DNA of 63,261 nt, the filler included, from Candidatus Woesearchaeota archaeon (GTDB lineage: Archaea; Nanobdellota; Nanobdellia; Woesearchaeales; B72-G16): the NCBI GenBank assembly GCA_003650545.1. It is 3 parts of 3 records of this genome, joined end to end, with 100 filler letters (N's around TTAATTAATTAA, not from the genome) between each part and the next. Parts side by side here need not be neighbours in the genome. Positions count along the whole stretch, not along the records: positions 27,727 to 53,313 come from QMQO01000018.1; 2 more parts are not named here. The stretch is one strand, 5' to 3'. Shown here piece after piece: positions 28,294 through 53,313 of this stretch. Each line of letters starts with the position of its first letter. The first letter of the stretch is position 1. A program made the position numbers and the translations under genes. The notes under the pieces are model-generated. The model was not told where the DNA came from. It was given only the letters and a program-made list of their open reading frames with translations, and ran no database searches.

Positions 28294-29266
28294 AGGACAG
28301 GTTAGTTTATGGATCATTACAGGCATCATCATTTTGATACTTGTGATTATTGGCGTTGTACTTGTTATAACTACAAAAAGGGCAGAGATTGTGCCAGAGC
28401 TTGACATCCTGCCGATCAGGGCTTATGTTGAGGGCTGTGTTGATGATGCTGCGTTAACAGGAATATTTACAATCGGAAAACAGGGCGGATATATCTTTCC
28501 TAAAGGCGATTATGTTTTTGTTGAGTTTGATTTCGTTAGTGTGGGCTTTAACATAGACGAGAATGTTTTGGTTAGCGAAAAAGAGATGGAGCAAGAGCTT
28601 GCTAACTACATCAAGATTGTGTTGCCTGATTGTGTTGGAAAGGTTAGACAGAGATTCGTTGATTACGGGTTTGAGTTTGGCGATGTTGATGTGGATGTTG
28701 ATATCACAGATGCAGATGTGCATGTGGATGTTTTGTACCAAGTAAGTGTTAGGAAAGGCAATGCTGCTGCAAAAATTGAGAGGTTTGTCAATGTGTACGA
28801 CATCAGACTTGGACATGCAAGAAATATCGCTGACAAGATCATAGATAGTATAAAAGCAGATCCTGATTGGATTGATGTAACTACCTTGGGAGAATATGAT
28901 ATGAAGGTTAATCTTGTGCCGCAGGATCTGGCCACAATCATTTATGTTTTGAGCGAGCCCAGCAGATATGGCGATACTTTTGTGTTTGCTTTTGGTGCAA
29001 GGTACAAAATTAATCATGACCCTGTGCTAGAGTTACCAGACACACTTGAACTGAAGAGGGGCGAGCGTTTTGTGTACCAGGTTGTTGCAACTGATGATGA
29101 CGGTGACAGGTTAACTTTCTCTGATGATGATGGGATGTTTGACATTACAGATGACGGGTTGATTGACTTTGTTCCTTATTTTGAAGGCAGATATGATGTT
29201 AAGATCACTGTTGTTGATGAACATCGCGGGTATGATGAAAAAGAGGTTAGGTTTGTAATAACATGA
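28286..29266 (+). CDS. Type IV pilin-like protein (class III signal peptide) with C-terminal Ig/cadherin-like domain
   Basis: [23 protein letters not shown]-terminal NHDPVL...[12 protein letters not shown]...[14 protein letters not shown] overlap with the giant gene. Confidence 0.78.
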
Positions 29267-32200
29267 ACTGGAGAAAATTCCTAGGAATAGTGATGATTTA
29301 TCTAACCATAACTCTGATGATTCCTGGGACTGTTTTTGTGTTTGCTCAAAGCGAAGAAGAAAAACAGACAATTTGTGATTTTGAGGCTGAGCTTGATAAG
29401 AAAGCAGTAGAATCGTGCTTAGAGAAGCTTGAGGAAAAATCTGTTGAAGATTTATCTAAAATTGTTAAGGAGTACCCTGACTTTTTTGTTAATAACCCAG
29501 AGTTGTTAACAGGGCTAAAAGTTGATATTAGTAATATAAAAGGAATTGATGAAGTTATTAAGAGAATCACTAAACTGCGTGTTGGGCTAGAATTTAAAGA
29601 AAACTCAGATTGTAGGTTAGAGCAAACTTTTAAGCTAACCTGCCAAAAGAGGAGTGTAGAGCTTACCAGTGTGTCTGAGAGATATGCAGAATATGTAGAA
29701 AAAATAATGACAGATCCTGAAAAAGGAATAATTATTGTGTTTAAAAATAAAAATCAGATGTATTTAAAAGATGGAGGCAGGATTTCTTTTGATGTAAATG
29801 GAAATGTAGAGGTTGGTCAGGGTATAATGCTGGTGGTTGATGAGCTTATCACTATTACCCCAAAAACAGAGATAAAAATTCTTACATCTGATGGATATTT
29901 AAAAATATCAGGAGCTGTCAGAATCGAATCAGATATGTTTGAGGGAAATGTAAATGAAGAGTTTTACTTCAGTGGCACTAAAGAGGGTTATGATCTTGTT
30001 GTTAAGGAATCTACAGGTGATTTTGCTGTAAATGATGGGTTTGGAGAGAACAAATTCAATGGAGATTATTTTGAGGTTAGTGTTAAAAAAGAAAAGATAG
30101 CTAGGTTTGTTATTGGAGAAAACACGATAGCTGTTGTCAAGAAAGAAGATAAATCATCATTCCCTGAGATAAGCGATTGTGAGGAAAAGATTGATGATAA
30201 GGTGCGTTGTGTGTATGTGTTACAGGATAGGGCATCAGGAGATGCTCTATTGATGAGGCAGGAAACTGTTGCGCTTAATGTTCTAACTAAACAACTTAAT
30301 GGGATTGATGAGTTAGAGGATGTTAATGCGATCATACAACATATAGATGAGATTCTTGGGCTTTTTGAAAAAGATAAAATAGAAGATCTAGTTATATTAG
30401 AATATATCCAGAATCTTGAAGATCTAAGGAAGAAAGCCAAAATATTTTCAAACTGGAAAAAAGATGAATCAGTGATGCAGTTTTTAAAAGAAAGCTTGTC
30501 AAAAGAGGCTATAGAGAGGTATAAGAGCATAGCTAAGAGCCTCAAAGAAGATGCAGACAATAACAATCAAATAAATTACTTGTTTAGGGATACTGGGAAT
30601 TTTCTCTTGTTTGGAAGATCAAAGATTACATACGAAGATGGCAGTTATATTACAGGTGAAAAATCTGATGTTATAAGGGCAGATGTTTTTGAGGCTGGAA
30701 AACATGTTCTAATGTGTGAAGGTTTTACAGATGGTGATGCTTGTGTTGGAAGAATCAGGCCTTATATATTGGATGAAAAGTGTACTGAAAACAATTGTTT
30801 AACGCCAGTTGAAGATGAAAATTTTGTAGAAATCAAAGTAACCAAAGAAGAGTGTACAGATGGAGTTTGTAATAGCCAAATAAAGTTAGGTAGGAATTCT
30901 GTTTTAAGGCTTTTTGACAATGAAAAATTCAAGGAGAAACTTGTTGCGTTTGATCAAACTGTTACAAGTGTTTTTGCTCTTGCTGCATCATCTAAAGAAT
31001 CCAGGATTAATTACTTTAGCATGGATGGCGATACATTGATTGCTGCTAAACAGTTACCTGACTATGAACTAAAAAATGAGATTGAGATAAATGATAAAGG
31101 TTTTAAGGAAAAAATAGAAGAGATTAAAAAATATAGAAAGCGTTTTGTTGCTTTATATGAAATTATCAGTTCTATAATTAAAGATGAAGATAAAGAAAAA
31201 TTAGAAAATTTAAAAAAAGAGTATGAGAAAAGCTTGATAGAGACTGGTGTTAAATCAGATGTTGAAAAAGATATTCGGGAATTCGCCAGTAAAACATCAA
31301 AAAAAGTTGGTGTGAACATAAACCTTATAAAAGCTCAGGTTGCTTTGAGTGTTGGGGATGTTGACAGAGCAATTAGATTATCAAAAAAAGTTATTCAGGG
31401 TGATGATGAGGCTCAGAAAATTAATGCTTATATGTTTTTGTTGCAGATGCATGCTATGAAGGGTGAGATTCCTGAAGATTTTAAGAAGGAAGCTTTTGGG
31501 TTCTTTGGGTTAAAAGATGAAAATGATGATACGATTATAGATGAGTTGGTAGATGTTCTGGGCATTCTGGGCATAGATAAAACAAAAGGTAGAACAGAAG
31601 CCCAAGATATTTTAGAAAAGCAGCAGATTTCAGAAGAGATCTCTGAAAAAATCGGTGGATTGGAAGAGGATAAAAGGAAGGAAAAAATTGAGCAGATTCA
31701 GGATATATTTGCTAAGTACTCATTTCTGGAAAATTACCTGGATCTGAAAAACAGGCTGGATGAGCAGAAAGATTTTGGTGATGAGTTGGAGAAATTTAAA
31801 GGACACAATGTAAATTATTTTGAGAGGTATAAGAATCGGTACAAAGATAACCCTAGAATATACGAAAGATTTTTGATGATAGGAGCGAATAAATATGGAG
31901 AATTGGCTGCAAAAGAAACTAATGAGACGAAAAGAAAAGAATATCTAGAAAAACAACTTGCATTCTTAGAAGAGGCAGCTGATGTCAGGGATAGAAACAT
32001 TGTGAAGAATGAGTTTGATCTAAGAAGAGCTGGATATTCTGAGATAGATTTCATCACTAACTTCTATAACGGGGTTTTGCAGAGGAGCAACATCAATCTT
32101 ATGCTAGAAAACTATGAAGTTGCAAGAAACCTTGCAAAAACTGCGTTTGGGTTGAATGATCACTGCTATAGCTGCCTATCAATAATGTATCACGCAGATA

Positions 32201-35200
32201 GCGTGTTACATGAGCAAGCAAAGGAGGAAGAAAAAGAAAAATATGCTCAAAAGCTGGAGGATACAATAACAAAAATAAAAACAGCTGCTGAGGATATTCT
32301 GGAAAAAGTAAATGAGATGAAAGAAGGCGAGAAGCTTAGTCCTGACGAGATTAGCATGTTATACTTATATCAAGCAACACTAAAGATTGAAGAAGGGATA
32401 TCTGAAGAAAAGTTAATAGAAAAGAAGATAGAACTGATAAACATTATAATAAATAGGGTAGAAGACAAGGATAAAAACAGATATTCTTTAGAATTACATT
32501 TTCTTGAAGCAGATAAAGCTGTTCTGGAAAATAAAGTTGAGGAAATAAGTAATGCTATTGAACAGTTAAAAAAGGATATTAAGGATTGTCCAGATAATAA
32601 TTGTAAAACAAAAGTCGCTCTAAAAATTGGTGAACTCGGGCTTAGTCTTGAGTCAGATGAAAAGCTGGAAAATACTGTTAAGTTTTTAATTACGAATAAA
32701 AAAGATCTATGCAAAGATGAAGAATGTAAAGGTGCTTTCAATAGTCTTATTCTATCTGCGGGAAGAGCTAGGATTGTATTATTAGCTCAAGACGAAAATT
32801 TTAATGAAGCTAATAACATAATCGAAGAGCTTAAAAACGAAGATATAGGAGTTGGTGAGCTCGAAAAGATGATAAATCGTCTGGAAAAGATTGCATCTCT
32901 ATCTTTTGATAATGCTCTTTCAATAATTGGAGAGGCTAAGACTGAACTCGAGAGGCTAGAGTCTGGCACACAAGAGTACTATAATAAGGGACAAGAGATC
33001 AATCTTATGTATAACATTGCTTTTAAAAAGCTTATAGAGAGTGTTCCTACAGATGTTACAACAGGAGGCAGAACATATAATCAGGATGTTATAACTGAGC
33101 TTAAAGACTTAGAGAGAAGTATCCAGGATTTGCCAGAAAATGTTAAGGATGCCTTTAAAACTGGGGTGTTTAATCTAATAATGCAATATCTATTTGCAGA
33201 AGAAGTTCCAGGGATTTCTCAAGCATATCGCATAGAGACAGCGTACCAGTTGCTGCAAAGTTTTCCTGAGCTAAAGGATAAAGAAATAGAAAATAAACGG
33301 CTTGGATCCTATGTGTGGAAACTTAGGGAAACTAGCTATCCTATCCAAAGGCTTAGTTATGGAGTAGATCTTTTGGAACAAGGAGACTTGGATAAGGGGA
33401 GAGAAGTTTTTCTGGAAGCATTAAAATCTGCAGAAAAGGTTGGCATCGTAGACCAAAATTTTCTTAACTATGTTCAGAGTGTAGCATTTAATCCTAAATA
33501 TCTTGTGATAAAACCTGAAGAAGGAGAGAGTGATCCTGTCTATAAATTTTTAGAAACACATAATGTAGATGTAGAAGATAAACTGAAGAACTACATAACA
33601 CAGACAAAATTCTACCAAGCGTGGTCAGATAAATCTTCTGATCTCCAAAGCATAGTGACTGATGTTGTAGAGAGGGAGATGGAAGAAGGGACTAGCAGAG
33701 ATATCTTAGCAGTGATGCCTGATCCTGATGATCCTGACAAGAATATACAAATTCCTTTGTATGTTGTGGAAGATGAAAAAGATAAAGGAAAATGGAAGAT
33801 TATAGAGAAAAGATCTGGCAACACAATAATAACTATTGACAAAAATACAAACCTTGAACAAGCGATTAGTGATTATTATAAACAAGATGGGGATATCAAA
33901 GCGAAACAGGTTAGCCTGTTTGTTAAACGGGAAAGAAATTCTCCTGAAGAAACCAAAGCTATAAACTCAAGAGTGACACAAATAGATAACTATTTTGATA
34001 ACTTAGGAGGGGAATTAAAAGGGTTATTTATGAGAGTGCAATTAAGGGGCGACATTGACAAGCTTGAAAATCTAGTCAGGATTGGAAAATATGATGAAGC
34101 AGAAAGTCTGTTTAAAAAAATTGAAGAAGCTAATGTTGAAGCAGGAGGTAATCTATTTTACAATGCAGGAATTGAGTATTTATACATAAATCCTATAAAT
34201 CCTGATGAGGCTAAGGAAGAAATCGAAAAAATCTCTAAAAAGGAAATAGAGGCATCGTGGGCTGCGTTCTCTGGTAATCCTGAACTTATGGACGAGATCA
34301 TAGAAGATTCAATCGAATGGAATAAGAAACAGATTAGAGATGCAGCAAATTTAATCTCAGAAAAAGATAATATCGATGATGTGAAAGAAAAAATTCGACA
34401 AGTGCTTAGTGGCTTAAATACTGTTGTCCAGACTGGACTTGCAACAGGGAGTTATGGTATAACAGATCTTAATAAGTTTAGGCTAGAGGCAATGCCTAAA
34501 AAAGATGAAAGCAAAAAAATACAAACCCTCAAAAAAAGTATTGTTACTTATCTTGATGATGTGATTGATGTAGAAATTGAAATAAATAAGATGAAGAGAG
34601 AGCAATCAAAAAGAGGTGTTTGTGTGCAGGGAGTCTGCACTTTTGATGGTAAAGAGAATGTGCCTGAATCTGTTGTTAGAGTGAGGCTATTATCAGACGC
34701 GATTGAGGAAAACCATGAACTGGCAAGGGATATTTCACTTGAAGAGATGAGGAGAAAAACATTTGGAGAAAGAATATCTGGGTTTATTGGCGATCTCGAA
34801 GATCTTGTAGGGTTTAGTCCATCACCAGCAGGGGATTTTATACTTTCTAGGCTTGGTAGAAGAGATCCATATGAAAAGGCAGTGCATGAGCCTGTTCAAC
34901 AATTAGAATTAAGTGTTGTAGGGCAGCAGATTGATAGGATTTTGCCAATTCTGAGTGATGAGCAGCTAGATGCTGCCTGTGATTTGTTTCAGTCTAAATT
35001 GCTTCAGTATAAGCGTGGTGAATGGGATGAGGACATTGCTTTTGATGCTGAAATGTTCAGAATGACCAGTGCTTTCAGCAACGAGAGGATTGCTAGAAAC
35101 AGGGCAAGAGATAAAGAAATGCTAGACGAATATGCTGAAAGCCAAAATATTAATCTAGATGAGTTGTCAGATGAGCTAAAAAAAGAGCTAGAAAAAGAGT

Positions 35201-38200
35201 ACTGGCAAACGCCAGAATTTAGAAGTTTTTCAGACCTTACCCAAGCAGAGCGTTATCGAAGCTGGATTTCTAGGATACAAGTGCCAGAAGAAGAATGGAG
35301 CCATTCTCAGATGGTTCTTTCTGCAAATAAAGATTTTATGATAGCAAGCCAAAAACTTGAAGAGCAATCTGTGGATGGTAGTGTTGCAAACACTCTAGCC
35401 AAAGATGAATTAGCGAACACAGTAAAATACCTTACAATAAAATTAGAATCACAGATAAATGAACATAAAAATAAGAATATAGAATATAACAGAGGTTTTG
35501 AATGGCTATCGTATATAGAGCCATGGCGTTATGTTGGTGCTTCTAATCTAAATGATTTATGGGTTACTCTTGGATTCGGTGATAGGGACAAGGTTGAGGC
35601 TTATAATAATGCCGAAGAAACCAAAAAAAATATTGAAGATTCCATTGAGAACTATCGTAATAACCCAACTGAGGACAACTATAACAAACTAACTGATGAA
35701 TTAGATAGCTTAGATAAATTAGAAAAAGCTGCAGATTATGCTTATCACCAGGATCATGGCTTTATAGCAGAGACACTTAATACAGAGAACGTTGTTAAAA
35801 CTGCAGCTGCATTAGTTTTTGCAGAGGTTGCGCCTGCGTTGATTGGGTTGAGGGCTGCAGAGGTGGGCGAAGCTGTTGAGACTGGCATAAAAGCAAAACA
35901 GATTGCAAGCAAAACCAGATTAGCAGTTAGAATGGCTGAGGCTGCCAGAAAGGGATTTACCACAGGTATTTTATTTGAGACTGCAATGGAATTTGCAGAT
36001 GGAAACTTCTTTACTGTGGAAGGAGCGCTTGGTGCTCCAGAAAGAATGTTGACTGGCGCACTTATGTTTGCAACAGGTGGTGCTGCTGAAGTAGGGATTA
36101 GCCCTCTTACAAACATACTTAGATATAGAAGCGAAGCTGCTGCACGGAGGTATCTTACTGAGACAGGAGCTAAAAGATTGCAATCTGCTATAGCTGCGAG
36201 AGCATGGAATACTGGTGCCTCAGCAATTAATTTTGGGGCGATGACAGCCGGATTTGCTGAGGTTAGTGCTCTGCAAAAGGGAATGCTTTATCCTGATCCA
36301 AAAACATTGGGAGAGACAGCTGTGACACTTGGTCTGTATAAGGTGGTTGGTACAGGCGTTGGTAAAGTCTTAGAGCCTGTAGAACGGTTGAGGATTATAA
36401 AAAACCTTGAAATCAGATCAAAAAAATACGATGAAAAGATAGGGGAATTTAACCAGAAAGCACAAGATATACTGAATGGAGTTAAGGATGACACAACAAG
36501 AACAAAGATAGAAAATATTTTTCAAAAAGAGATTTCTTACAGAGAAAAAGCTGAAGAATTGTACAAGATAGAAACTGAAAATCGTGAACTGAAGACACAG
36601 ATTGAACAAATGGCTGATTTTCTTCGTCAGGCTTCTGGTGCTAGATTAACCAGAGATTATCTAAATTATGAGATCGAGATGCGCAAACATGAACAGAATG
36701 TGAATGAAAACAATATAAAATCAGAAAAGTACTTTGACCAGATTGAGAAAGTTATTAAGGCAAAAGAGACACTACTGGAAACAGAATATGAGGAAGGAAT
36801 TATTAATGATCAGGGATATGACATTGGAAAAAAAGAGATCGAACTGGAAAAAAAGCTTTCAAATAGGAAAAAACTGTATCTAAATCTTAAAGAAGCTAAT
36901 GAAGAACTAGGTGAGCTTGAAGCTCGAGGTAAAATAGAAAATTCTGAAAAAAAACTAAAAGAGAACTTTGAGCTAATAACAGACATTGAAGAAAGTGATT
37001 CAAGAATCCGCTCTCTCAGGGAAGAACTTAAAAAGAATAGAGCCGGGGAGGTTGAGGCTAAGATAAGAACACAGACAGAGGCAAACATCCTTACAAAAAT
37101 GGTTGAACTGAAAGAAGCATTATTCAAGAAAGATCTGCTAGAGCAAAAGATTAACACTGAAAAGCAAAGACTAATCCTAGAGAAGATGCAAGAGGGTCTT
37201 AGTTTTGCTAAAGCCAAAGCTGATGTCGAGGCTGTATTCCAAGAAAAGCTAACTGAGTTTGAAAAAGGAGAAGTTAAAAGTAAACATGGATATGAAGAAC
37301 TGATAAGACTGATAATAGAAAAAGGTACACTAGAAAAGGATATTCCTAGTATAGAAACAGAGTTGAATGAGTTAAGTTATCAACAGATTCAGGAAGTAGA
37401 AGAAGCAAAAAAAGAAGCAAAGAGAATTGCTAGGGAAATTCGTAGGTTTAAAAAAATTGAAAATAGAATTAAGAATAAGAATATTAAACCTAATGTTAAA
37501 AATATAATTGATCTTTTAGAGAACAACAGACTTCCAACTGACCTAGAAGAACTCAAGAACACTGTACTGGAAAATTTAAACAGAGAAGAACTAAAATTCT
37601 TAAATGCACGTATTGAAGAAGCTGAGAAGATTACTGGGTTAACAGCAACAGAAGAACAGGCTGCAACAGCAATAATGAATAGTCTAACCAAAAATAGTTT
37701 AATAATATCTGTGCCGACAGGCAGAGGTAAAAATGTTTTCATCACACCAGAAATGGTGTTGACTGAGTTGCGTGCAGGAAGAAAAACCCTGATAATTGAA
37801 CCTGATGATAACCTAAAAAGAGCTACATATAATTATCTTGTTGAAAAGCTCAAAGGAAAAGTCAGAAGCATAGTTCAACCAGAGATTGACATGCGCACAT
37901 TAGATGACAGGATTGCTGCAGATATTCAGAATGCAGATGTTGTTGTGATAACTTTAGAAGAATACATTAATATCAAAGGTGCAGAGAGAGCATTAATTGG
38001 CAAGGAAAATGAACTTGCAACGGGAATCATGAATGATTTTGGAGAAAGATTTAACATATTTGATGAAGCACATGAAATTGCAAATGCTAATCCTCTTATC
38101 TGGGTGAGGGCAGAAAAACCACTAAAAAGTATAGAAGGTGGCAGAGAAAAAATATTCGCTAACAAAATCTTGTTTGAAGTTCTTAAAGAAGTAGGCAACA

Positions 38201-41200: not shown

Positions 41201-44200
41201 ATTTATTTAAAGATGTTAAGGGTGCTGTTTTTGAGGTAGAAGCGGATGACGATGACAGGAATGTGTTTACTATTGGGTTTAAAGGGACTGATAAAACTGG
41301 AGAGGTCAAGGCTAAAGCAAAGATAACACTCCAAAAAATACAAGGAGCAACAGAAGATCTACAGACCATGACTCTAGAAATTCTTGAGCTGCCTGCTGAA
41401 TCAAAACATAAACAGAGTTTCTATGATTCAATTGAGAATTATGCTCATTACAAAGGAATTGAACAGATTGATATAGTAATCAAGCCAAACTTGGTTGCAA
41501 GACTACTACCTGGATCTGATTTTCGGTTCTTGCGTAGAAATGGTTTCATTGTTCACAAAGAAGATTTTACAAAAACTGGGTTATGGGAGATAAGTATGAT
41601 AAAGCCTCTGACACAAGAAAGGCTTAATGACTTACTGAAGTTTATCAGTGCTAAGCAGGATATTTTAACAGAGGATAGAGATAAACTAGAGAGTGAACTA
41701 GGACCAAAGTTTGCAAAATACCAAGGTCTAATCGATAGGCTTGCAGATATAAAAACCAGCTCTATTAAAGCAGCTGTTGCAGGGGATCAAGCTAGACATA
41801 CTTTAATAGAATCATTGGTAAAAACTGTTCTTGGTTATGGTATTGTTCAGAACATCATGGTCATGACTAGCTTCTTTAAACAAAAACCGATTAGTCTTCA
41901 GACATCTTTCACTGAGAGGAGTCTGGTTACAGTAACAGAAACAGCACCACAGAAAGTTGAGGCGCTGGCGGAGGGTGCTGGGCGTGCTCGGCGTTTAGTT
42001 ACTAATGTTCCTAGCATTGGCTTTACAACATTTTTCTTGCAGGCGTTTGAAACTTTTGCTATGTTTGAGTTTATAAAAAGATGGCGTTTCGCGATGCCTG
42101 TCAATGAAAAAAACTTTGTTAAAACCAGGATCGTGCCTGTATTAAAGGGAATGGGCGCATATTATGTTAGCACAAAGATACTTCCTGCCTTGACATCAGC
42201 ACTAAACATGGGCGCAGCTATTGCCAACCCAATAATTGGTCTAACATTTGGCTTGACTGCAGGCTATACATACTCTGCTATCTCGCCAAAAGAAGACAAG
42301 ACTGCAAGCTTTGTCTCGTTGGCTACATTTGGCTTGACCACATTAGGAATGATGTTTGTGCCGCAGGTTCCATTGGTTGCATGGGGGGTTAGCTCGATTG
42401 CGATACCTGCTACAATCGCACTTATAAGAGGGTGTAGCAAGATAGCCAAAGATGTGGGAGAGGAGCTCTGGAGTTTTAATGTTGGTGATTTCATATTCAG
42501 GTCAGCATCAGCAGCAACAGCATACTATTTTGCAAGGATGGCTGCTGGGGCTGCAACAGAAGGAATGTTAAACACTGGTTTTCTTATCCCTGCTGGTGTT
42601 GCGGTTACAGCTGGTCTAGCTGCTGTCGGCAGCTTTGTCAGTATCAGAGGTGTAAATCAAATCACTGCTGGAGTGATCGACAGCTTTAGGAATGTCCTGA
42701 GAACCGTGAGGAAGCTAAGAACTGACCAGAGAGCACGGTTTTATGCATTAACAAGGGTAGCTGCTGCAGGAGCTGTTTGGTATGGTTTAACGCATTTTGG
42801 GGCATTGACTGGCATGATCGGAGCAGCAACACTTCCTGTTGCACCGTTTGTTGTAGGTGCAGGGATCGCTGGCTTTGGTATATATAGCTTGTTTGGTTAT
42901 AAACCATTTGTAAGAGCACTCTCTACAGAAGCTGCAGATATTGGGATAAAATTAACTATTAGATCTGCACTAGCAGGTGGTATGCTAAGTTTGGCTTACA
43001 GAACTGGACTTTTCACTGGCATAGGAAGCATACCCCTTTATCTACTTATAACAGGGGTGCATGTCAGCTCGTACATTGCTGGAAATAAAATAATCGAGAC
43101 TCTTAGAGGTTTGGTGTTCAAGGATATTTCAACAGAATTACTTGATAAGATTAAGGAGGATGCTGCAAGAGAAAATATAAATGTAGATTCATACAGGGTT
43201 AAGCATGTTGGACCTGAAACACATATCATCTTTACCTACAATACAGAGAATGTGTTTGGCATGGTGATCAACACTCAGACGCATGGCCTAACGGTTTCTT
43301 CTTATAAGGAGGATGTTAAAAAAGAAGATGAAGATGTAAGCAGAATTGTAACTGAGAATATTAATAGTATTCTGGATGAGGATTTGGATAAGATACTGAA
43401 ATTTGAAAAGCAACTTGAAGATCTTAACAATAAAATAAAGATGACTAAAAAAACAACAAGACAATTGAAAAGACTGGAAAAAAGAGGGAACCTAAGAGGG
43501 GTAGAGACGCCTTTGCTGAATAGGGTTAGAGCAGACATTAAAAGTCTATATGAAAAAACAAGAAAAATGGTTAAAGTTCCTATATCTAAAGTGAGGATAG
43601 AAGAAGTAGTAAAGAAAGGAGTAAAAATAATAAATATTGAACTTCAAAAAATAAGCCCTATATTGTCCAAAATTAGTGTTGGGATGCCTCAGCTTGGAAG
43701 AACTACTGGCATAACAATAGCTATAGGTGTTGGTGTTGGTGGTTTCACCTTAATCGCAGCTGCGCCCTTTGCAGGTGTTGTTGCTGTTCCACTTGGGATG
43801 ATTGTTGGAGGTATAGGCGTAGTTAGTTATACACTAATCAATGTTATGAGAGAGATAACATTTGAAACACCGCTAACACGAGAATTACCAAAAATAGATG
43901 ACAGAGCTGAAGTGTTGAGGGCAGCTTCTGAAAGAAGAATAAAAACTATTACCTCACCTGTAGATAAAAGAACAGTTGTGATTGGAGATATCCATGCTTC
44001 GTTAGATGCTTTGAAAGAAAGCCTTATTGCTGCAGGCTTGATTGATACTGAGGATAATTGGATTGGAGGCGATAATCGCTTTATACAGACAGGAGATGTT
44101 ATTGATCGTGGCCCTGACTCTATTGAGTGTTATGATTTCCTAAGGGAGCTACAACAAAAAGCAGAGAGTGCTGGCGGAGAAGTTGTGAGACTGCTTGGAA

Positions 44201-47200
44201 ATCATGAGTTGTTATTATTGCAGAATGTTGATAATAGATTTGCAACAGAGTCAATTTCTGACAAAGAGCAAAGAGAAGAATTAAGAAGCAAAATAATAGA
44301 GGATATAAAATCAGGAGATGTAAAGGCAGCTTATTATGTTGCAGGTCACATGGTGTTGCATGGTGGTTATGTGCCGGATGCTTTCCCGGAATTTAAAGAT
44401 AATAGTCCTGAACAAATTGTAGATCAGCTTAATGAAAGACTTGTTGAAGCTATAAATACTGAGGATTATGAAAATGATCAAATATTTAAAGCTGGCGTAT
44501 CTAGAGAGGGGGAGGGGTTGCCTGGCATATTCTGGGCTGATTATTATAAAGATCTAGTTTATTTCGATCTAGCACTAAATAAAGCTGATCTTCCTGACCA
44601 AATAGTTGGTCATACTCCGACAAGAAAAAGTACTCCGACAGAAAGGAGAAAAATTGTTACCTCAGATTTTAAAAAAATTATTGATATTGATGTTGGACAT
44701 GCTGAATATTATGGTGGTTACAGAGCCCAATTAATCATAAAAGAAAATGAAATTTTTGCTAAAGAACCAACTGAAGATGAGATTAAAAATTTTAGAGATA
44801 AAGCAAGCCATCTAAAGCGTAATGGAATCATCTATGGAGTCTTTAATCCTGTAACAGGTAGAATCGTTATTAACATTGATGCTACAAGGGAAGCTTTTAA
44901 AGACGAACTTAGAGGAAAAGCCCTAGATAAAGTGCAAGCGTTCGTCTTTTCACATGAGATACTGCATGCAATACTGGCTAGAGCAAAGATAACTCTGTCT
45001 GAAAGGCGTGAAGAGGCACTTGCAGATGCCTTTGCAAGAGCCATGATTAATGCTGAAAAGCCTGACGATGTCGAATCGATTAACAGGTTTATCAAGAGGT
45101 TTAATCTTAAGCAGAGAAATCCAAGAATAGCTGACCTGCTTGATGTTGCAAAACAAAGAACAGACTATCCGGGTTTCTTTCTCAACCTTGAGTTGGCTGG
45201 AATCACACCTTACAATGTCGAAGTCCGTGGCATAGAAGATATAATCTTCGAGGAGGTTATTAGTAGAGAGGTTGAGCAGGCTGCAGTTTCGATTCTTAAA
45301 CTAGAAGAGCCAACACCGGGTATCATAGAAAAGATAAGAAATGAACTTAATATTGCACAAGGAGAGGCAATTGAAAAAGCAAGAGCTGCACTAAAAAGAA
45401 GTAAATCTGCACAAAAGCGTTACGAAGAACTGAAAGGCATAGCAGAAGCTAAACAGAGATTATATAGTGTTATAGACAGAATATACAGAGACACGCCTGC
45501 TTATGCAGCAAATAATGTGTTAGCAAGAAATAATTATTATACTGAGCGTGGTGTTAGAGAAGGTGAACTGACAACAGTTGAGTTTGCTTTGAACATCAAA
45601 CACCTTAATAGCGAAATTGGTCCAGAGGCAACAGACTCTGTGCTGAATGCTGTTTCATTTGCCATAGATAATATTGTAAAGGAAAGTACAGAAGCAGATA
45701 GTCTCAGAAGTAATACAGGTACAAAAGTGTTGAGGAATGACGCTAAGAATATCGAGACAATCATAACCAAGATTGCAAGCGGAGAGTTTGTGATAGAGAA
45801 CTTCGACGGTGAGGCCGAGATCCAGGACGCTATTAATAGGCTTAGGGATAAAGATGTTGTTATTGAGGAGATCGTGAATGTTCTGGATAGCAGAGGTTTT
45901 AAAACAACTAAAACCGAGTTAAACAAGGCTGTAAAAGAAAAGGGTTATAGTGATATAAGATCTTTCCTTGACAGTAACTTTCAGGCTTATATGGGTTTTG
46001 CTAGAACAAAGTATGTTGGAATGGATAGTGCACAAAGAAATTATCTAAACGCTTTCAGGGATGGCAAATTTGTTCAACTTTCACTGATTGCAGAAATTGA
46101 GGAAGGTAAAGATGTAAGTCAGAGGGACGCAACAATTGTTGATTTGATCCAAAGAAAGAAAGCTGTTAGGGGTAGGTTTAAATCTGGTGTTTATTACAAT
46201 GACAAGGATTATGCTGGAAAAATAAAGGATGTTGTGCGATACCTCAGAAAGAGCAATGATGTTGTAAAGGAAGAGTTTAAAACTTATAGAGGGATGCTAA
46301 AGAAGAGCAGAGAAAATGTTAAGAATGTTAAAACACTGAATGATCTGATCAGAAGCTATATCTTATCAGATAAACAAGTGAGGCCTCTGGTGGATGCTAT
46401 TGCCAGAGACAGGATCGTAAAAAGGATAGCGATACATGACAGAGATGTTAGCTATCTCACATCTAGGCAGATCTGGAATTTAAGGTTGCACCAAGAGATG
46501 CAAAGAGTTTCTGAGACTGGCAGGATAATCATTGGTTCATTAGACATAAATAATCTTGGTGTTCTTAACTCAATTAACCCTGATTATGCAGATGATATGA
46601 AGAGTTTCTTGATAGAACTATTACAAAAAAGGTTTGGCTATCAAAATGTTGTGGTGACGGCTGGTGATGAGATTTCCTACCTAACCACAGGAATGACTGA
46701 AGAAGAGTTTAGAAAGATAGAGAATGATATTATAGAAAGGTATAGCGCATACGCTAAAGAGCAAGGTTACAGGATAGATGCAGACGAGGTTATAGAAGAT
46801 AAGTTAGTCAAAATAAGGGATGCAATACCCACCATTAGCTCATCATACATTGTGATAAATGGTAGAGATGTTCTTATAGGTTTAGCAAAAGAGGGTTATA
46901 AACCCTTCTTGTTTATCAATAATGCGCTTGATAGAACAGTCACAAATGTTAAGAGTGAGGGTAAGATCGCATTAAGCAGAGGAAGAACACCAACATGGTC
47001 TAGAGCTATCACACCGGCTGATGTCGGCGCTACAGCTGAGATGGTTAAGGCTAAGGGTGTGTTTGTTGAAAGACCAACACAGACATACTACCTTGATATT
47101 ATAGAAAGCATTGCAGACAAAAGGGACTCAAGATTTGAGGCTTACATGAAGAAAATTGATTCCGAGGAGATGGAAAACAGCATAAGCCAAATAAAAGCGA

Positions 47201-50200
47201 TGCGGGCATTGCTTAACTACATCCCTGAAAATAAATTAAAACCTGTTGAGCTGATGATAGAAGAGAAAAATGTTGCAGAAAATATTCAAGCTAGGCTAAA
47301 AGAAAACGGTTTTACATTGAAGGACAAAACTGTTGAGATACTCAAAAGCTTTAATCCTGAAGCTAGAAAAACTCTAGATAGTGGCGCGATTGTAAGAGCT
47401 GCAATTGATCTGTTTAATGACAAGACTTTTGTTGATTATACAGCAGCAGGGGCACGGTATACAATAGATGAAACCGTTTTGATGCTTGCGGCTTTAAGCT
47501 ATTCTGGTGTTGTAGAGCAAAAGGTTGCTGAGCATAACGAGGAAATAATCCCTGTCGGGCCATATAATGTTTTTGTTAATATAAAACAGCTTGTAGATAA
47601 ATATGGTGGAGATTATGTGAGGGTGTTTAAGCATTCAGACGGAAGCACAAGCATTATCACCATGGATGGGAAGGGGCACGGATTATATGCTTCATACATG
47701 AAAGCGCTGACCGCAGCTTTACTGCCAGTAGACAAAATGGTTACATTTAATGATATTGTGATGGCTGATGAGCATCTTAATGTTGAAGAAAAAGGAGTAT
47801 TTTTCGCAGCAGTCAGTATTCTGAATGTTGATAAAGACGGGACACTTTACGGCTTTGGAGGTTCTGGTTACTCTTACCATGTTACTAAGGATGGTCAAGT
47901 TATACAGTTGAAGAGCAGGTTCTTACCGCTGGGAATAGGTGCTGTTGATACTGCTGGAATAGATAAGGCTAGCATTGGTGATAAGATAGAGATCAAGGAA
48001 GGCGATAGAGTAACCATGTTCACAGATGGTGTGTTTGAGTTCAACAGGAAAAAAATCGTTTATGCCGGCAAGATATTCAATATGGAGATAGATTATTATC
48101 TCCAGCTATTGCAAGATAACATAGCCGAGCCATCAACAACTTACATAGATGTTGGTACCAGAGATATAGCGAACATTGGCGCAAGAGATGATTATCTATT
48201 TGTTGTTGTTGAGATGGCTGATTTTGGTGGAAGGTTGGCTGCTTTTATAGGCGAGAGAGGAGTATCGCTAACAGATACACAAAAAAGAAGAATCGCTGCT
48301 GTGAAAGAACAACTGATAGCATTGGGAGTCTCGGAATCGTTTGTTGTGCATGAACAGGAAAGAGTGTTTGACAGCATAAGAAGAATAAGGCCAAATGAAA
48401 AGGTTGTTAATAAGATTGAAGAGGCTGAGAGCATAACAAGGGATTTTGAAGCTGTATTTGGAAAACTGATAGAGATATTAGGTTTAAGGGTAACAGATCT
48501 CACCAGAGAAATCACAGACAAGTACGAGCAGGTAGTAATTGAAGAATATAAAGTAAGAGACATAGGCGGTTACTATAAAAGAATAAGGGACGAACTAAAT
48601 AAAAGATATGGTGTTGATAATGTGGAAGCAAGCCCTGAGTATAAGATTAAGTTATATAACGAGTTATCAAGATTGAGGAATCTTGTGAGAAACAAAATCA
48701 CTAGAGAGATTGTCGAAAGGGAGCGGAGAAAGGGCTTTACTTATGATAGTATTAGGGCTAACTTGAAAAATGTAGCAACGAAGCTGAGGCAGGAGCTTGA
48801 TGACAGGCTTTCAGCCAATATTGTTTATCCTGGAACCAGGGTTCCATTAGAGTATCTGGCTAATGATGTTTTGATTGATTCTGTCATCGATGCATTACAG
48901 GCTGAAGAAGCTGCAAAAATGGTTGAGGTTGCTGCTGAAGGGGTTGTTGCTGAAGGCGAGATTCTTGTCAAGAGACCTGCAGAACAACCAACACATCCAG
49001 ATACTAGGGCTACCGCAGTAGCTGTAATAAATAATCTTGGCCTTGGAACAAAAGATCCATTGGCTGCAGAGATAAGAGCAACAATTAATAAAGAGTTAAA
49101 TGCTGGAACAATAGGCGCTGCCTTAATAAGAGCAATCGAAAGGACGATAAGAGAGAGTGGTAGAGATGATGTTAATATTTTAGTTGATAGATTAAACAAC
49201 CCCTCGTTCTTCAGATATTTTATTAACAGACTAACTCCAGTGACTGTTGGTTTTATTGGTAGCAATGTTTTTGTTGATTTAATAGTTAAGATCAGGGACT
49301 GGAGAAAATCTAGAAAAGTGTTGCAGATCAGCTATGACCAGATTAGGGAATTATTAATGGAAAATATACAGAAGGTTGTTGATGTTGGGGAACCAGCTGT
49401 AGAACCATTAATAAAAGCGTTGAAGGATGAAAACATAGAGGTTAGAAAAAGAGCAGCAACAGCACTTGGATATATTGGAAGTGAGAGAGCTATAGAACCA
49501 TTGATAGAAGTAGCGTTGAAGGATGAAAACTGGGGGGTTAGATGGGAAGCAGCAAATGCACTTAGATATACTGGAAGTGAGAGAGCTGTAGAACTGTTGA
49601 TTAAAGCATTAGAAGATGAAAACTGGGAGATTAGAGAAAGTGCAGCAACAGCACTTGGATCGATTAAAAGTGAGAGAGCTGTAGAACCATTGATAGAAGT
49701 AGCATTGAAGGATGAAAACCGATATGTTAGAGAAGAAGCAGCAACAGCACTTGGATCGATTAAAAGTGAGAGAGCTGTAGAACCATTGATAGAAGTAGCA
49801 TTGAAGGATGAAAACTGGGAAGTTAGATGGGAAGCAGCAAATGCACTTAGATATACTGGAAGTGAGAGAGCTGTAGAACTGTTGATTAAAGCATTAGAAG
49901 ATGAAAACATAGGGGTTAGAGAAAGTGCAGCAACAGCACTTGGATATATTGGAAATGAGAGGGCTGTAGAACCATTAATAAAAGCGTTGAAGGATGAAAA
50001 CTGGGAGATTAGAGAAAGTGCAGCAACAGCACTTGGATCGATTAAAAGTGAGAGAGCTATAGAGCCATTAATTGAAGCGTTGAAGGATGAAAATGCAGGT
50101 GTTAGAATAGAAGCAGCAAGAGCGCTTGGATCGATTGGAACTGAAAAAACTGTAGAATTGCTGATAAAAGCGTTGAAAAATGAAAATAAAGATATTAGAA

Positions 50201-53200
50201 TAGGAGCAGCAGAAGCGCTTGGAATGATTGAAAGTAAAAAAACTATAGAACCATTAATAAATGCGTTGAAGGATGAAGATGCAGATGTTAGAATAAAAGC
50301 AGCAGAAGCGCTTGGATCGATTAAAAGTGAAAGAGCTATAGAGCAATTGATAAAAGCGTTGAAAAATGAAAATAAAGATATTAGAATAGGAGCAGCAATA
50401 GCGCTTGGATCGATTAAAAGTGAAAAAGCTATAGAGCCATTAATTGAAGCGTTGAAGGATGAAAATGCAGGTGTTAGAATAAGAGCAGCAACAGCACTTG
50501 GATGGATTAAAAGTGAAAGAGCTATAGAGCCATTAATTGAAGCGTTGAAGGATGAAGATGCAAGTGTTAGAATAAGAGCAGCAGCAGCGCTTGGATCGAT
50601 TAAAAGTGAAAGAGCTATAGAGCAATTGATAAAAGCGTTGAAAAATGAAAATAAAGATATTAGAATAAGAGCAGCAGAAGCGCTTGGATCGATTAAAAGT
50701 GAAAAAGCTATAGAGCCATTAATTGAAGCGTTGAAGGATGAAGATGCGGGTGTTAGAGAAGAAGCAGCAGAAGCGCTTGGATCGATTAAAAGTGAAAAAG
50801 CTATAGAGCCATTAATTGAAGCATTGAAGGATGAAGATGCAGGTGTTAGAATAGAAGTGGCAAAAGCGCTTGGATCGATTAAAAGTGAAAAAGCTATAGA
50901 GCCATTAATTGAAGCGTTGAAGGATGAAAATGCAGGTGTTAGAATAAAAGCAGCAAAAGCGCTTGGATCGATTAGAAGTGAAAAAGCTATAAAGCCATTA
51001 ATTGAAGCGTTGAAGGATGAAGATGCGGGTGTTAGAGAAGAAGCAGCAGCAGCGCTTGGATGGATTGGAAGAGTTAAACCTCTGATAAAAGCGTTGAAAA
51101 ATAAAAATAAAGATATTAGAATAGGAGCAGCAAGAGCGCTTGGATCGATTAGAAGTGAGAGAGCTATAGAACCATTGATAGAAGTAGCATTGAAGGATAA
51201 AAACTGGGAGGTTAGAAAAGGAGCAGCAGCAGCACTTGGATATATTGGAAGTGAGAGAGCTGTAGAACCATTGATAGAAGTAGCATTGAAGGATGAAAAC
51301 ATAGGGGTTAGAGAAAGTGCAGCAGCAGCACTTGGATCGATTAAAAGTGAGAGAGCTGTAGAACTGTTGATTAAAGCATTAGAAGATGAAAAAATAGGGG
51401 TTAGAGCAAGTGCAGCAACAGCACTTGGATATATTGGAAATGAGAGAGCTATAGAACCATTGATAGAAGTAGCATTGAAGGATGAAAACCGATATGTTAG
51501 AAATAGAGCAGCAGATGCATTAACAGTTATTAAACAAGGAGATATCGAACGAATTAGAGCCTTGATTCCACAATATCTACAAGTATATTACACCACAGAA
51601 GAATTTCGTATTGCTTCTCAAATTTTAAGGTATGGAGAACTGACTGGTTCTGAGGTGTTCAAACGCTTGGGCGTGTCATTCAAAAATGTAGAAGGAGGAG
51701 CTAAGTTTGAAGATCTTGATTTTGTGTTAAAAATAATCAAACTCTCTGAAAATCCTTACTTAAAAACTATTTTAAAAGATATTCCTGAGTATCAGCATTA
51801 TTCAATTATTCAAAGCATTGTCAGAAGAATTAGGCAATTAGAAGGAGAGGGAGCTAGGGTTGATGTAAGAGAGGTTATAGACTATATTATACAGGGTAGA
51901 AAAAATATAGCAAATATTGAGTTGGCAAGTAAAAATACTAATGCAGTGATCATAACGCATGATGAAAAGTGGTATGGCATAGATCGTTTTGATAACAATG
52001 AAATCAAAAGATTCTTGATAAAGGCTGGAGTGATCGAAGCTAAAATTGAAAACTTTAAGGGTGTAAAGGATAAAACATCTGCACTAGATGCGATCAGGTC
52101 TATTGATACTCCAACATTCATCTATCTAAGCGGTCATGGCGGACCTCACCACTTCTGGCTGACTAGCGGAAGATTAGGCGAGGAGTACAGCGATGATCTA
52201 AAGCGAGATGATGCAATAAGTTATACTGAATTAGCAGAGGCATTGATGTCAATCCAAGAACAAGGTTATGAAATCAAAAATGTTCGGATGGTTATTGACA
52301 GCTGTTATAGTTATGATTTTGCATCAATGGTTTATAAAGAACTTAGGTCCAGAGGAGCCAGATCTTTCCCTATTATCATAACATCAACAAACAGGGAACA
52401 GGTTGGTTATAGCATATCGCCTGAAGAGAAAGCAAAGTTTGGGATAAGTAGTTCTCAACTAATGTATGGTCTTGTTAATGCCAGAAGATTTAAAAAAGGA
52501 CCACTGATTATTGATGATGCGTTTAGATCTTTAGAATCAAATGTAATCGAGAATATTGGTGTGCTTGTTCCCCGTGAGTTATTCGAAGAAAAACCTGTAG
52601 AGAGAATTGTGCTAACAACTCTGGGAAGTACTCAAGACGATTATCTGCCTGTTACAGACGAGTATTTAAGAGAGATCGCAAAAAGCGAAAAAGGAAAGAT
52701 CCCAACCCCTATGCTATCAGAGGTTATAGATGCTGGATTCACTGGCGCTTCTAAATACGAAGGAATGGACTGGGGAAAGGTGTATAATGCTTACAACAGA
52801 ATGTCTGGCAGCTTTAGCAAGTTGTCACATGAAGATCTAATAGGTGTGATTGGAGTCGGAAGATTCTTTGATGTTAAGATTAAAATTGAGTATGATTCTG
52901 ATGTGAATGAAGCTGATTATGATCCTAACACAAAAACTATCTACATCAAGACTACTAGCAGAGAGATGAATGATTTTGTTGAGCTGGCAACTGTGCATGA
53001 ACTTGCAGAGGCTGCTTATAGGTTGTACAATGTGGAAGATAAGTCTGCTATAAACGCGCATGGATTTGCATTGATGATGGAACATGCATATACAGGAATG
53101 ACAAGAGAGCAGAAAATACCAGTATGGCAAGCTAGAGAGAGAACAGAAAAAGGAGAGGTAGTAGATGTCTTTGTGAGAGAGCCTGAGAACATACAGTTTA

Positions 53201-53232
53201 GTAAGAGAGTCAAACAGATGGTTGAAATTTAG
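29263..53232 (+). CDS. Giant 7989-aa multidomain membrane protein with SecA-like ATPase and an array of enzymatic cargo domains
   Basis: Uninterrupted 24-kb ORF. Signal peptide; Cys-pair/TPR-like region; G/A-rich helices (~35790-36370); SecA-like motifs PTGRGK, DEAH, TATP, QELGRR (37711-39567); multi-TM block (~41820-43840); metallophosphoesterase GDIH/GDVIDRG/GNHE; HEILH; GGDEF-like (AGDE); PP2C (DGKGHG, FTDG, RDD); 23 HEAT repeats; caspase-like SGHG...DSC; terminal HELAE. Confidence 0.92.
49396..51530 (+). repeat. HEAT/PBS-lyase repeat array, 23 units mostly of 93/96 bp
   Basis: A(I/V)EPLI(E/K)(V)ALKDE(N/D)xxVRxxAAxALGxIxSE(R/K); units near identical at DNA level. Confidence 0.93.
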
Positions 53233-53233
53233 G

Positions 53234-53261
53234 TTTTTTCTTTTTTTCCCTCTTTTTTTTT
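53234..53261 (+). terminator. Oligo-T archaeal-type terminator
   Basis: ttttttctttttttccctcttttttttt directly after the giant's stop codon. Confidence 0.55.
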
Positions 53262-53313
53262 AAGTATTTAAATAAGTAATTTAATTTTAAAAATAATTAA
53301 ATTAAATATATAC

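Follow-up and report, generated by a model that had tools for sequence, protein, structure and literature searches.

A giant archaeal protein with a central SF2 ATPase and a candidate role in single-chain delivery

The window analysed here is a stretch of 63,261 nt made of three joined contigs from one woesearchaeotal genome (G000), and it contains a gene for a giant protein of 7,989 aa. The ORF is genuine and of archaeal origin. Its product is best explained as a single-chain, contact-dependent delivery protein, a tentative reading whose chances we put somewhat short of even. A summary of the features is given in Table 1.

The giant gene and its relatives

Contig C18 (27727-53313) is filled by the giant gene behind two overlapping genes. 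The 24-kb ORF originally described was confirmed as a single frame free of stops, the remaining five frames carrying 202-1,050 stops over the same region. Family searches with the first upstream gene gave no match. The stop of the second overlaps the start of the giant by 4 nt, and its protein family has matches in 49 of 61 genomes from the archaeal order to which G000 belongs. Because of this gene and of a tetranucleotide correlation with the core contigs of 0.954 (0.72-0.76 for the suspect contigs C30 and C38), C18 is archaeal, as had been claimed. The 328-aa protein belongs to an order-wide family and is not demonstrably specific to the giant.

Table 1. Features of the giant gene and its two upstream neighbours, in positions of the window.
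Feature	Position	Strand	Basis or remark
167-aa gene, first of three overlapping genes; N-terminus HTH-like	27790..28293	+	by eye
328-aa membrane-anchored protein, KGQ-type N-terminus, C-terminal Ig domain	28280..29266	+	Big_9 E 1e-4
Giant ORF, 7,989 aa	29263..53232	+	open-frame analysis
Signal peptide, aa 1-28	29263..29346	+	hydropathy 2.2; cleavage site by eye
Extracellular region, aa 29-2170	29347..35772	+	holds 21 of 25 cysteines, mostly paired
Gly/Ala-rich, marginally hydrophobic helices, aa 2176-2372	35788..36378	+	hydropathy peaks 1.1-1.7
Charged coiled-coil-like linker, aa 2373-2790	36379..37632	+	42% D/E/K/R; coiled coil by eye
SF2 ATPase motor	37630..39762	+	motifs Q, I, II (DEAH), III (TAT), V (TN..LD), VI (QxxGRxR) intact
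Motif II-III insert of 237 aa, where SecA has its preprotein-binding domain	38065..38772	+
Hydrophobic multi-helix block, aa 4248-4610	42004..43092	+	no counterpart after motor in relatives
Hydrophobic hairpin, aa 4813-4865	43699..43857	+	hydropathy 2.3
Calcineurin-like metallophosphoesterase	43969..44712	+	passes Pfam cut-off
HEXXH metallopeptidase-like segment	44905..45117	+	weak: DUF4344 E 4e-4, Lit E 6e-4
Two palm/GGDEF-like domains, degenerate	45550..46842	+	GTP cyclohydrolase III E 0.08; second with AGDE, first by eye
SpoIIE/PP2C-type phosphatase domain	47638..48213	+	passes Pfam cut-off
HEAT/PBS-lyase repeats	49360..51522	+	93-bp unit, 22.7 copies, 80% matches; HEAT passes Pfam cut-off
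Caspase/clan-CD protease-like domain, His and Cys dyad motifs	52030..52542	+	weak: E 0.006; C13 E 0.02
C-terminal HEXXE segment	52900..53112	+	by eye

A chimeric assembly, or a bacterial contig within an archaeal bin, is very improbable and largely refuted. The bin does include two giant-ORF contigs of deviant composition (C30, C38) and the HEAT array is repetitive. Against an artefact stand the order-wide gene overlapping the start codon, the same architecture in five further genomes (the copy in genome G255 lies beside TYW1- and NMD3-family genes), a sequon purge that is uniform end to end, and a contig re-assembled from run X1 which covers 36216-40838 with no differences, possibly from the source sample and hence not independent. 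Contigs from the same run tile 33300-48213 with overlaps of 30 letters, one below the bridging rule, fragment within the HEAT array and leave 51976-53290 uncovered. The HEAT repeat count and the final 420 aa are provisional.

Judged by its sequence, the motor defines a rare family, which is present in G000 and in five of eight genomes of one related family, with open frames reaching at least 17,312 aa. Of 400 genomes sampled from the order, 14 had matches at E 0.001, nine of which were left out as short and weak, in frames of 638-1,030 aa; the class sample gave 6 of 401 (five left out as short and weak) and the phylum sample 2 of 401, G000 included. A full HMMER protein scan yielded one 492-aa fragment (P0003), word-indexed protein searches the giant itself or nothing. 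None of 74 metagenome candidates and none of 58 viral candidates was confirmed as a family member. In a second metagenome scan 9 of 229 were confirmed, and all nine were discarded as MetF-like by eye. Similarity to the giants of C30 and C38 was not detectable.

Signal peptide, Cys-rich region, Gly/Ala helices, coiled coil, motor and variable cargo follow each other in a conserved order. The proposed core of membrane helices, coiled coil and motor is borne out by the homologues, while the cargo varies: G255 aligns with G112, G370 and G399 only up to about 1,050 aa past Walker A. A signal peptide also begins the G255 homologue. All four cysteine-pair motifs originally quoted are in place (CTENNC 30781, CTDGVC 30853, CPDNNC 32587, CVQGVC 34621), whereas the TPR-like helices claimed for the extracellular region gave weak matches only (best E 0.01). 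Homology of this region (aa 29-2170) to the N-termini of the relatives is undetectable, nor did G000 match profiles built on the pre-helix and post-motor regions of the relatives. The Gly/Ala helices are located 470-830 aa ahead of Walker A in all five members with a frame covering the region; their sequence similarity to relatives reaches only E 0.03.

Sequon depletion and topology

The giant contains one N-glycosylation sequon, whereas 39.4 are expected from block shuffles (P 5e-16). There is none from the Gly/Ala helices to the motor (7.7 expected), none in the motor alone (4.8 expected, P 0.008) and none after it (19.6 expected). Six members pooled have 7 sequons against 197 expected in 50,392 aa, counts that overstate independence since the members are related; in the public genomes alone, G255 shows 3 against 53 and G399 0 against 23. 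No other of the 241 gapped residue pairs in the giant is as rare as N-x-S and N-x-T, and six control patterns are at 0.65-1.2 of expectation or undepleted (N-P-S/T 2 vs 1.0). In G000 the sequon ratio is 1.05 for 217 cytoplasmic-type ORFs and 1.71 for 97 signal-bearing ORFs; the lowest among 59 testable ORFs is 0.22, that of the giant 0.025. Genes neighbouring the G255 copy contain 28 sequons (36.5 expected), and the bacterial-looking giants of C30 and C38 show 31/32 and 25/23 observed/expected. A DNA-level cause was rejected, as the gap is extreme in the coding frame only (other frames 8/19, 58/49, 80/74, 116/81 and 18/18) and does not exist genome-wide.

As described in the available part of PMC6098224, the oligosaccharyltransferase AglB acts at N-X-S/T after flipping of the glycan to the other side of the membrane. 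STT3/AglB is present in G000, G255 and G303 (three of five genomes searched) and SecY in G255 and G303. Searches found no AglB in G399 and G370 and no SecY in G000, G399 and G370; at 82-85% genome completeness this does not imply absence. Because the loss of sequons extends from one end of the chain to the other while cytoplasmic-type proteins are normal, motor and cargo probably leave the cell. Cysteines number 21 in the 2,169 aa before the Gly/Ala helices and 4 in the 5,820 aa after them (their share in cytoplasmic-type ORFs is 1.1%), a scarcity which is not specific because the C30 and C38 giants show it too.

The original prediction left open whether the protein inserts into its own membrane or that of a host. 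In the former case the Gly/Ala helices would anchor in the producer's membrane and a cytoplasmic motor would push the C-terminal cargo out via SecY or an own channel, as modelled for Omnitrophota giants (10.1101/2023.11.21.568195). The motor would have ready ATP and the loss of cargo sequons would be accounted for; moreover the cysteine boundary coincides with the Gly/Ala helices, the hydrophobic character of the first helix is plain in G112, G303 and G370 (1.85-2.3), and SecY is present in G255 and G303. However, a cytoplasmic motor would never meet AglB, so that the sequon-free motor of G000, and a helices-to-motor part with 0 sequons in six of six members (about 42 expected summed), count against this arrangement, which we consider unlikely. 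That motor and cargo probably both leave the cell speaks against a motor at work in the cytoplasm of its producer and in favour of delivery to a second cell, where ATP is at hand; a delivery role is the best reading.

The loss of sequons would likewise be explained if the protein were a surface-tethered multi-enzyme or sensing filament, entirely outside, held by the post-motor helices and acting, with no delivery, on material leaked by cells that are attached or lysed. This resembles the prey-digestion reading of Omnitrophota giants (10.1101/2023.11.21.568195) and suits the strong hydrophobic block in G000, whose post-motor helices (hydropathy 1.8-2.3) are like SecY's own TM helices (main peaks 1.5-2.65) and could halt translocation and leave the chain tethered, a point against the delivery model. 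Yet the multi-TM block, though present in G000 as predicted, is missing in the relatives and hence lies outside the conserved machine. The cargo (kinases, PPDK, DnaJ, phosphatases) needs cytoplasmic substrates, and ordinary surface proteins of G000 are sequon-enriched (1.71) instead of depleted. A filament of this kind appears rather improbable.

Ancestry of the motor

The motor is an intact SF2 ATPase. All quoted motifs were found (EEQ 37651, VPTGRGK 37711, IFDEAHE 38056 with D at 38062, FLTATP 38770 with T at 38776, LTNQRAGLD 39256, QELGRR 39550), and SF2 motifs I, II, III, V and VI are conserved in six of six members. Pfam DEAD is above cut-off, with matches in six of seven members (ResIII in two of seven), and both RecA-like lobes align to SF2 structures. 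The II-III insert measures 237-302 aa across the family.

The motor is probably derived from SecA and very divergent, an ancestry that is likely though unproven. SF2 motif order and the large II-III insert agree with the SecA-like motor first proposed, but curated SecA models do not: Pfam SecA_DEAD and SecA_PP_bind and NCBIfam/TIGR SecA, at curated cut-offs, match none of seven members, and the G000 genome has no SecA model match. With a SecA HMM built from 11 sequences no giant was significant, nor was anything in pairwise BLAST of the motor against E. coli SecA and the C38 ATPase. Over 106 NBD1 columns the family profile can be aligned to SecA (E 3e-5), and it keeps register with SecA from where the preprotein-binding domain ends to motif III inclusive (46 columns, score 21.9-22.4). 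The latter alignment outscores every one of 25 and of 20 column shuffles but only reaches E 0.03, and XPD over the same region scores 14-15, within the shuffles. Scores within the shuffles were likewise obtained against SecA for the segments running from motif V through VI to the helix and for the core of the insert taken by itself, and against the XPD/DinG profile for NBD2. Behind motif VI a long helix of 42 residues is predicted at low confidence. ESM comparison was tried for two members and placed SecA_DEAD/PP_bind on top for one, the G303 homologue (0.90, 178 shared features); the first clusters for G000 were DEAD/ResIII/Helicase_C_2 and DinG/ResIII-like (0.93, 160 features).

The structural check against SecA gave models of pLDDT 47.7 and pTM 0.26 (7-row, II-III insert region under 50) and of pLDDT 37 (single-sequence AlphaFold2). 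For the pTM 0.26 model the top rows are RIG-I/MDA5, Brr2 and Hef (Z 7-9), and SecA rows (Z 7.3-7.5) are tied with Hef, RIG-I and Brr2. Foldseek gave no match at E 0.001, and a PDB sequence search none for the single domain and only Walker-A-level Brr2 matches for the profile. Fold searches thus fail to separate SecA from other SF2 proteins.

Housekeeping SecA/SecA2 and the motor have in common SF2 motif order and spacing, the large II-III insert, the strand-TN-motif V, a variable insert after V and, as predicted at low confidence, a long helix after NBD2. In contrast, the motor has no significant pairwise or HMM match to them, carries DEAH where SecA has DEVD, has the longer insert (about 180 aa in SecA) and forms part of a giant chain; neither a wing nor a two-helix finger was identified.

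Alternatively, the chain may be exported and delivered whole with the ATPase being a nucleic-acid SF2 translocase (DinG/ResIII/Hef-like), i.e. a first fixed effector and no protein motor. The ESM clusters of the G000 motor, its Pfam matches and the top structural rows point in this direction, as do the similarities to XPD/DinG helicases, namely the DEAH motif, a II-III insert and the Walker A region (XPD/DinG above SecA, 35 columns, E 4e-9). Against it, Z-scores from the pTM 0.26 model are tied with SecA, cysteines between motifs I and II are lacking in six of six members and with them the FeS cysteines, and the I-II spacing of 115-148 aa is shorter than in XPD (180; SecA 105). By eye, the variable insert directly follows motif V, before the strand to VI, as in SecA rows and differently from XPD/DinG, and the context is that of a membrane protein. 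DinG-like proteins without FeS exist, so the missing cysteines leave some DinG-like groups possible. Helicase_C_2 (PF13307) has matches on contigs C12 and C21 of the genome and none on C18. On balance a translocase of nucleic acids seems an unlikely, if arguable, identity.

Cargo, delivery and related systems

Among the cargo domains, originally counted as "seven or more", three exceed Pfam cut-offs (metallophosphoesterase, SpoIIE/PP2C, HEAT), three are weak and the rest were recognised by eye. The metallophosphoesterase is common to the G255 and G303 giants (32-36% identity); kinases, PPDK and DnaJ are found in relatives.

For a delivery protein we propose the following course. The signal peptide would direct the chain to the producer's Sec channel, and the entire chain, motor and cargo, would cross to the outer face where AglB works. 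Selection may have purged N-x-S/T and nearly all cysteines behind the Gly/Ala helices, keeping the chain unglycosylated and threadable. The disulphide-rich N-terminal region may bind a partner cell, whose membrane the marginally hydrophobic Gly/Ala helices would then enter. The motor behind them would reach the recipient cytoplasm, the sole place with ATP outside the producer, and could ratchet the downstream chain inward in SecA fashion. Finally the cargo (phosphatases, palm-fold domains, peptidases, HEAT) would rewire the recipient, and the caspase-like domain may free pieces. That a secreted SecA-derived motor enters a neighbour behind membrane-inserting helices and uses that cell's ATP to pull in interchangeable enzymes amounting to 4,000-10,000 residues or more is conceivable, with our judgement leaning against it.

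The producer is a small, probably host-dependent archaeon. That DPANN archaea are largely host-attached had been taken as established; according to the available part of PMC11606122 host attachment is not established for Woesearchaeota. The recipient cell of the delivery model is a putative one.

Self-export by giants with SecA-like domains is already published for bacteria, and we found no archaeal report in the literature. The role was proposed for bacterial giants in a study that itself notes unreliable TM prediction and ambiguous localisation for them (10.1101/2023.11.21.568195); divergent SecA DEAD domains occur in Omnitrophota (Archaeovorin-, Dockerin-type) and actinobacterial giants (10.1101/2023.11.21.568195; 10.64898/2026.06.07.730766; PMC8195603). 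The G000 giant has their architecture, the SecA label being uncertain: a signal peptide, membrane helices adjoining a divergent SecA-like motor, and many unrelated enzymes (phosphatases, GGDEF, PPDK, peptidases). Unlike them it is archaeal, its motor is too divergent for SecA_DEAD/PP_bind HMMs, most family members have few TM helices, and the sequon purge indicates a motor leaving the cell. The archaeal giants also lack the C39/S8 head, neither peptidase being found in aa 1-2000 of the giant or in the first 4,645 aa of G255.

The nanohaloarchaeal giant surface proteins SPEARE (SVXNc_0300, BNXNv_0298), proposed to deliver effectors to a host (PMC10266531), are likewise DPANN giants with Sec signal, membrane segment and ATPase. 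Their ATPase, however, is VirB4/TraG-like, near the C-terminus and facing the producer's cytosol, and they have no other enzymes (PMC10266531). In the G000 giant the ATPase is an SF2 motor located mid-chain, ahead of at least 4,500 cargo residues.

Single-chain multi-effector toxins follow a MARTX-like logic. Such toxins and polymorphic toxins (PMC3482391) resemble the giant in a conserved delivery core with variable C-terminal enzymes, membrane-inserting Gly/Ala helices and a possible autoprotease. They differ in that no homology is shown and that the giant has a built-in ATP motor and a Sec signal; immunity genes or cassettes were not seen on the contigs.

According to the available part of PMC6098224, no substitute for SecA has been identified in archaea, and that of PMC11606122 treats as open how Woesearchaeota-type cells act on partners. 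The giant family is a concrete candidate machine for such action. The sequon purge offers a topology argument that bacterial giants cannot supply, and a cheap screen in which archaeal cytoplasmic-type enzymes without N-x-S/T sites are candidate delivered effectors. If the proposal is true, the motor would be the first of SecA type in archaea, the usual geometry of SecA would be inverted, since the motor would pull from within a foreign cell where SecA pushes from its own, and the bacterial SecA-DEAD giants may work likewise.

Origin of the giant ORF

The 7,989-aa giant was found as predicted: its frame is uninterrupted for 7,989 codons and all quoted motifs lie at their reported positions. The contig, C18, holds in addition a 167-aa and a 328-aa gene, each gene overlapping the next. 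The bin of the source genome, G000, is estimated at 85% completeness and 3.9% contamination. Two other contigs with giant ORFs, C30 and C38, deviate from the core contigs in tetranucleotide correlation (0.72 and 0.76) and look bacterial, hence binning alone is not trustworthy and tests of origin were needed. C18 correlates at 0.954, and relatives of its 328-aa gene occur in 49/61 genomes of the order. It is thus archaeal and not bacterial. We consider the giant real, archaeal and rare; an artefact is highly improbable.

C17 is likewise archaeal (archaeal uS7 and type II MetAP above cut-off). Further features are compiled in the table.

Coordinates of contigs and features; positions refer to the window unless a genome is named
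Feature	Location	Strand	Remarks
C17	1-27626		First of three spacer-joined contigs, unrelated; ordinary archaeal genes: Ig/S-layer-like proteins, GT4, Rad50-like ATPase, uS7, signal peptidase I, radical SAM, tandem Lrp regulator, MetAP II, DUF2070
C18	27727-53313		Sole contig of the finding
KGQ-type protein	28280-29266		The 328-aa gene; family with KGQ-type N-terminus, genomes throughout the order encode several paralogues each (six matches in G000); weak Ig match in Pfam, otherwise no model
Giant ORF	29263-53232	+	7,989 codons
GNAT-like segment	~41100-41600		aa ~3950-4110, behind the motor
C38	from 53414		Third spacer-joined contig; GC 0.42, composition unlike core contigs
C38 giant ORF	53414-62305	-	Partial, 2,979 aa, continues past contig end
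C30 giant ORF (L001)	G000:C30 1-16734		5,578-aa open frame spanning the whole contig
G255 giant (L050-L052)	G255:C36 2-51937		17,312 aa or more; contig ends within the open frame
G303 giant (L055)	G303:C64 near 17907		Unpublished genome; apparently split by a lone in-frame stop into 2,174-aa and 5,968-aa frames

The C38 giant starts from a similar set of parts: a signal peptide, Gly/Ala helices and two stretches of C39 peptidase, to which inspection by eye adds a degenerate SF2/SecA-like ATPase of its own; sequons are normal. C38 is probably a bacterial (Omnitrophota-like) contig within the archaeal bin. The C30 giant has Gly/Ala helices, DnaJ, UPF0489, metallophosphoesterase-like motifs and, by eye, a degenerate ATPase. 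Its HELAE motif resembles the C-terminus of the window giant; BLAST between the two gave no significant similarity.

A family of giants and its SF2 motor

In 401 genomes of the order, a single-sequence search turned up a single weak lead, located in a frame of 4,104 aa. A 3-row profile matched five of 400 genomes at E 1e-49 or better, all of them in the family f113 (5/8 of its genomes). A profile of these five members alone found the G000 motor, the giant's SF2 ATPase, over 691 positions (E 6e-13). Their frames of 4,104, 5,736, 5,968, 9,283 and 17,312 aa are all cut by contig ends. The G255 giant begins with a signal peptide, has TYW1- and NMD3-family genes nearby and is far longer than the largest protein of cultivated archaea, 9,409 aa according to PMC10266531. 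Wider genome samples beyond the order yielded no additional member, hence the family is rare among the genomes searched. G112, G303 and G370 are unpublished, and alignments, profile tests and the G303 ESM result partly rest on them; G255 and G399 alone suffice for family, architecture and sequon result.

The conserved order is signal peptide, long Cys-rich region, Gly/Ala helices, charged linker and motor, with the weakly hydrophobic helices 470-830 aa ahead of Walker A. Similarity among f113 members stops ~1,050 aa past Walker A, except within one genus. The cargo, the variable enzyme domains behind, comprises metallophosphoesterase, PP2C and HEAT in G000 (weaker matches: peptidase, palm, caspase-like), PPDK, kinases, DnaJ and HEAT in G255, HD in G399, HopA1-family, metallophosphoesterase and PPDK in G303 and kinases in G370; metallophosphoesterase is common to G000, G255 and G303. 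The layout originally described holds for the conserved core and variable cargo, but the relatives' giants show nothing equivalent to the multi-TM block behind the G000 motor; this block is thus cargo or anchor rather than core channel. The GNAT-like segment, which we take by eye for a GNAT-type fold, had no match in a library search.

The motor is an intact SF2 ATPase (motif I lysine, DEAH, T/S-A-T, motif V and QxxGRxR in 6/6). Several features speak for the SecA assignment of the original prediction. Motifs I and II are 115-148 aa apart (SecA 105, XPD 180), FeS-domain cysteines are absent and 237-302 aa are inserted between motifs II and III. The motor profile aligned with 31 SecA-type sequences over 106 NBD1 columns (E 3e-5). 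From the insert end through motif III it is in register with SecA and beats all column shuffles, yet only at E 0.03; strand-TN motif V, variable insert, strand and motif VI follow the arrangement of the SecA rows by eye. The ESM search with the G303 domain ranked a SecA_DEAD/PP_bind cluster first (178 shared features). On the other hand, SecA HMMs found no match in the motor family, DinG/ResIII-like clusters ranked first for the G000 domain, the short XPD match at Walker A is stronger than that of SecA, 5/9 sub-segments tested score at or within shuffle range with the SecA profile, and structure searches with a model of pTM 0.26 left SecA tied with RIG-I, Hef and Brr2. The motor probably descends from SecA, and we do not class it as a SecA family member. 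That it is a nucleic-acid helicase acting as a fixed effector seems unlikely.

Depletion of cysteines and sequons

Before the Gly/Ala helices lie 21/25 cysteines of the giant, leaving 4 in the 5,820 aa behind them (cytoplasmic-type ORFs: 1.1% cysteine); the scarcity is the same in all members. N-x-S/T, the glycosylation signal of AglB, occurs once (aa 887) in 7,989 aa versus 39 expected from shuffles within 200-aa blocks. None was observed from the helices to the motor end (7.7 expected), behind the motor (19.6) or after the hydrophobic hairpin further downstream (14). Control patterns (reverse, adjacent, wider-gap, Q- and D-based) are near expectation, N-P-S/T is not depleted, and among 241 gapped pairs N-x-S and N-x-T are the two rarest. 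The six members, which are related to each other, all agree and together hold 7 sequons versus 197 expected.

Among control ORFs of G000 (27 core contigs, >= 300 aa, classed by hydropathy only) the ratio is 1.05 for cytoplasmic-type and 1.71 for signal-bearing ORFs; it is ~1 in the bacterial-looking giants. The lowest ratios after the giant belong to two signal-bearing ORFs, of 951 aa on C8 (3 vs 13.9) and 1,044 aa on C28 (2 vs 8.0), possibly further unglycosylated exported proteins. Other ORFs (C9, 3,242 aa; C6, 2,543 aa) are strongly enriched.

Some bacteria have cytoplasmic N-glycosyltransferases. The cytoplasmic-type ratio of 1.05 makes it unlikely that the producer has such an enzyme; one in a recipient cell, which we keep in consideration, would likewise imply delivery. 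G000 encodes STT3/AglB, and AglB glycosylates N-X-S/T once flipping has brought the glycan to the other side of the membrane (PMC6098224). In the simplest reading, motor and cargo are at some stage exposed on the outer face and must stay unglycosylated.

Possible delivery into another cell

An exported motor and cargo depending on ATP, PEP or chaperones need a cytoplasm, which favours entry into another cell. We tentatively propose, as a possibility somewhat short of probable, that the giant leaves its producer, enters another cell and ratchets its cargo in. Each transport step is what we infer from the observed motifs, domain order, family and depletion: the signal peptide would direct export, the N-terminal region would bind the recipient, the Gly/Ala helices would insert, the motor would enter and the recipient's ATP would power ratcheting. 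The main difficulty is the hydrophobic block behind the G000 motor, whose hydropathy equals that of SecY helices; it might anchor the chain to the membrane of the producer or finish in the recipient's. Enzymes tethered at the surface are improbable, and a motor that stays at home and pushes cargo outward, at odds with the exposed motor of the simplest reading, is only slightly less so.

Giants of Omnitrophota and actinobacteria have divergent SecA DEAD and preprotein-binding domains without scaffold/wing, with self-export proposed (10.1101/2023.11.21.568195; the main text contains neither 'Woesearch' nor 'DPANN', and the supplement may list archaeal cases). Other sources describe a SecA_DEAD cluster of 20 proteins (10.64898/2026.06.07.730766), SecA-like domains of giant toxins from actinobacteria and of effectors from Amoebophilus (PMC8195603, PMC3482391) and nanohaloarchaeal giants with a VirB4-like ATPase (PMC10266531). 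PMC11606122 regards the hosts of Woesearchaeota as unresolved, and according to PMC6098224 archaea have no identified substitute for SecA. The main text of a Nanobdellota preprint on 208 genomes contains neither 'SecA' nor 'giant', and the literature search, covering few subscription papers, returned nothing about SecA-like giants of archaea or about such proteins losing their sequons. The design itself is thus already known and the archaeal giant a variant thereof; the topology clue from the sequons alters the working model.
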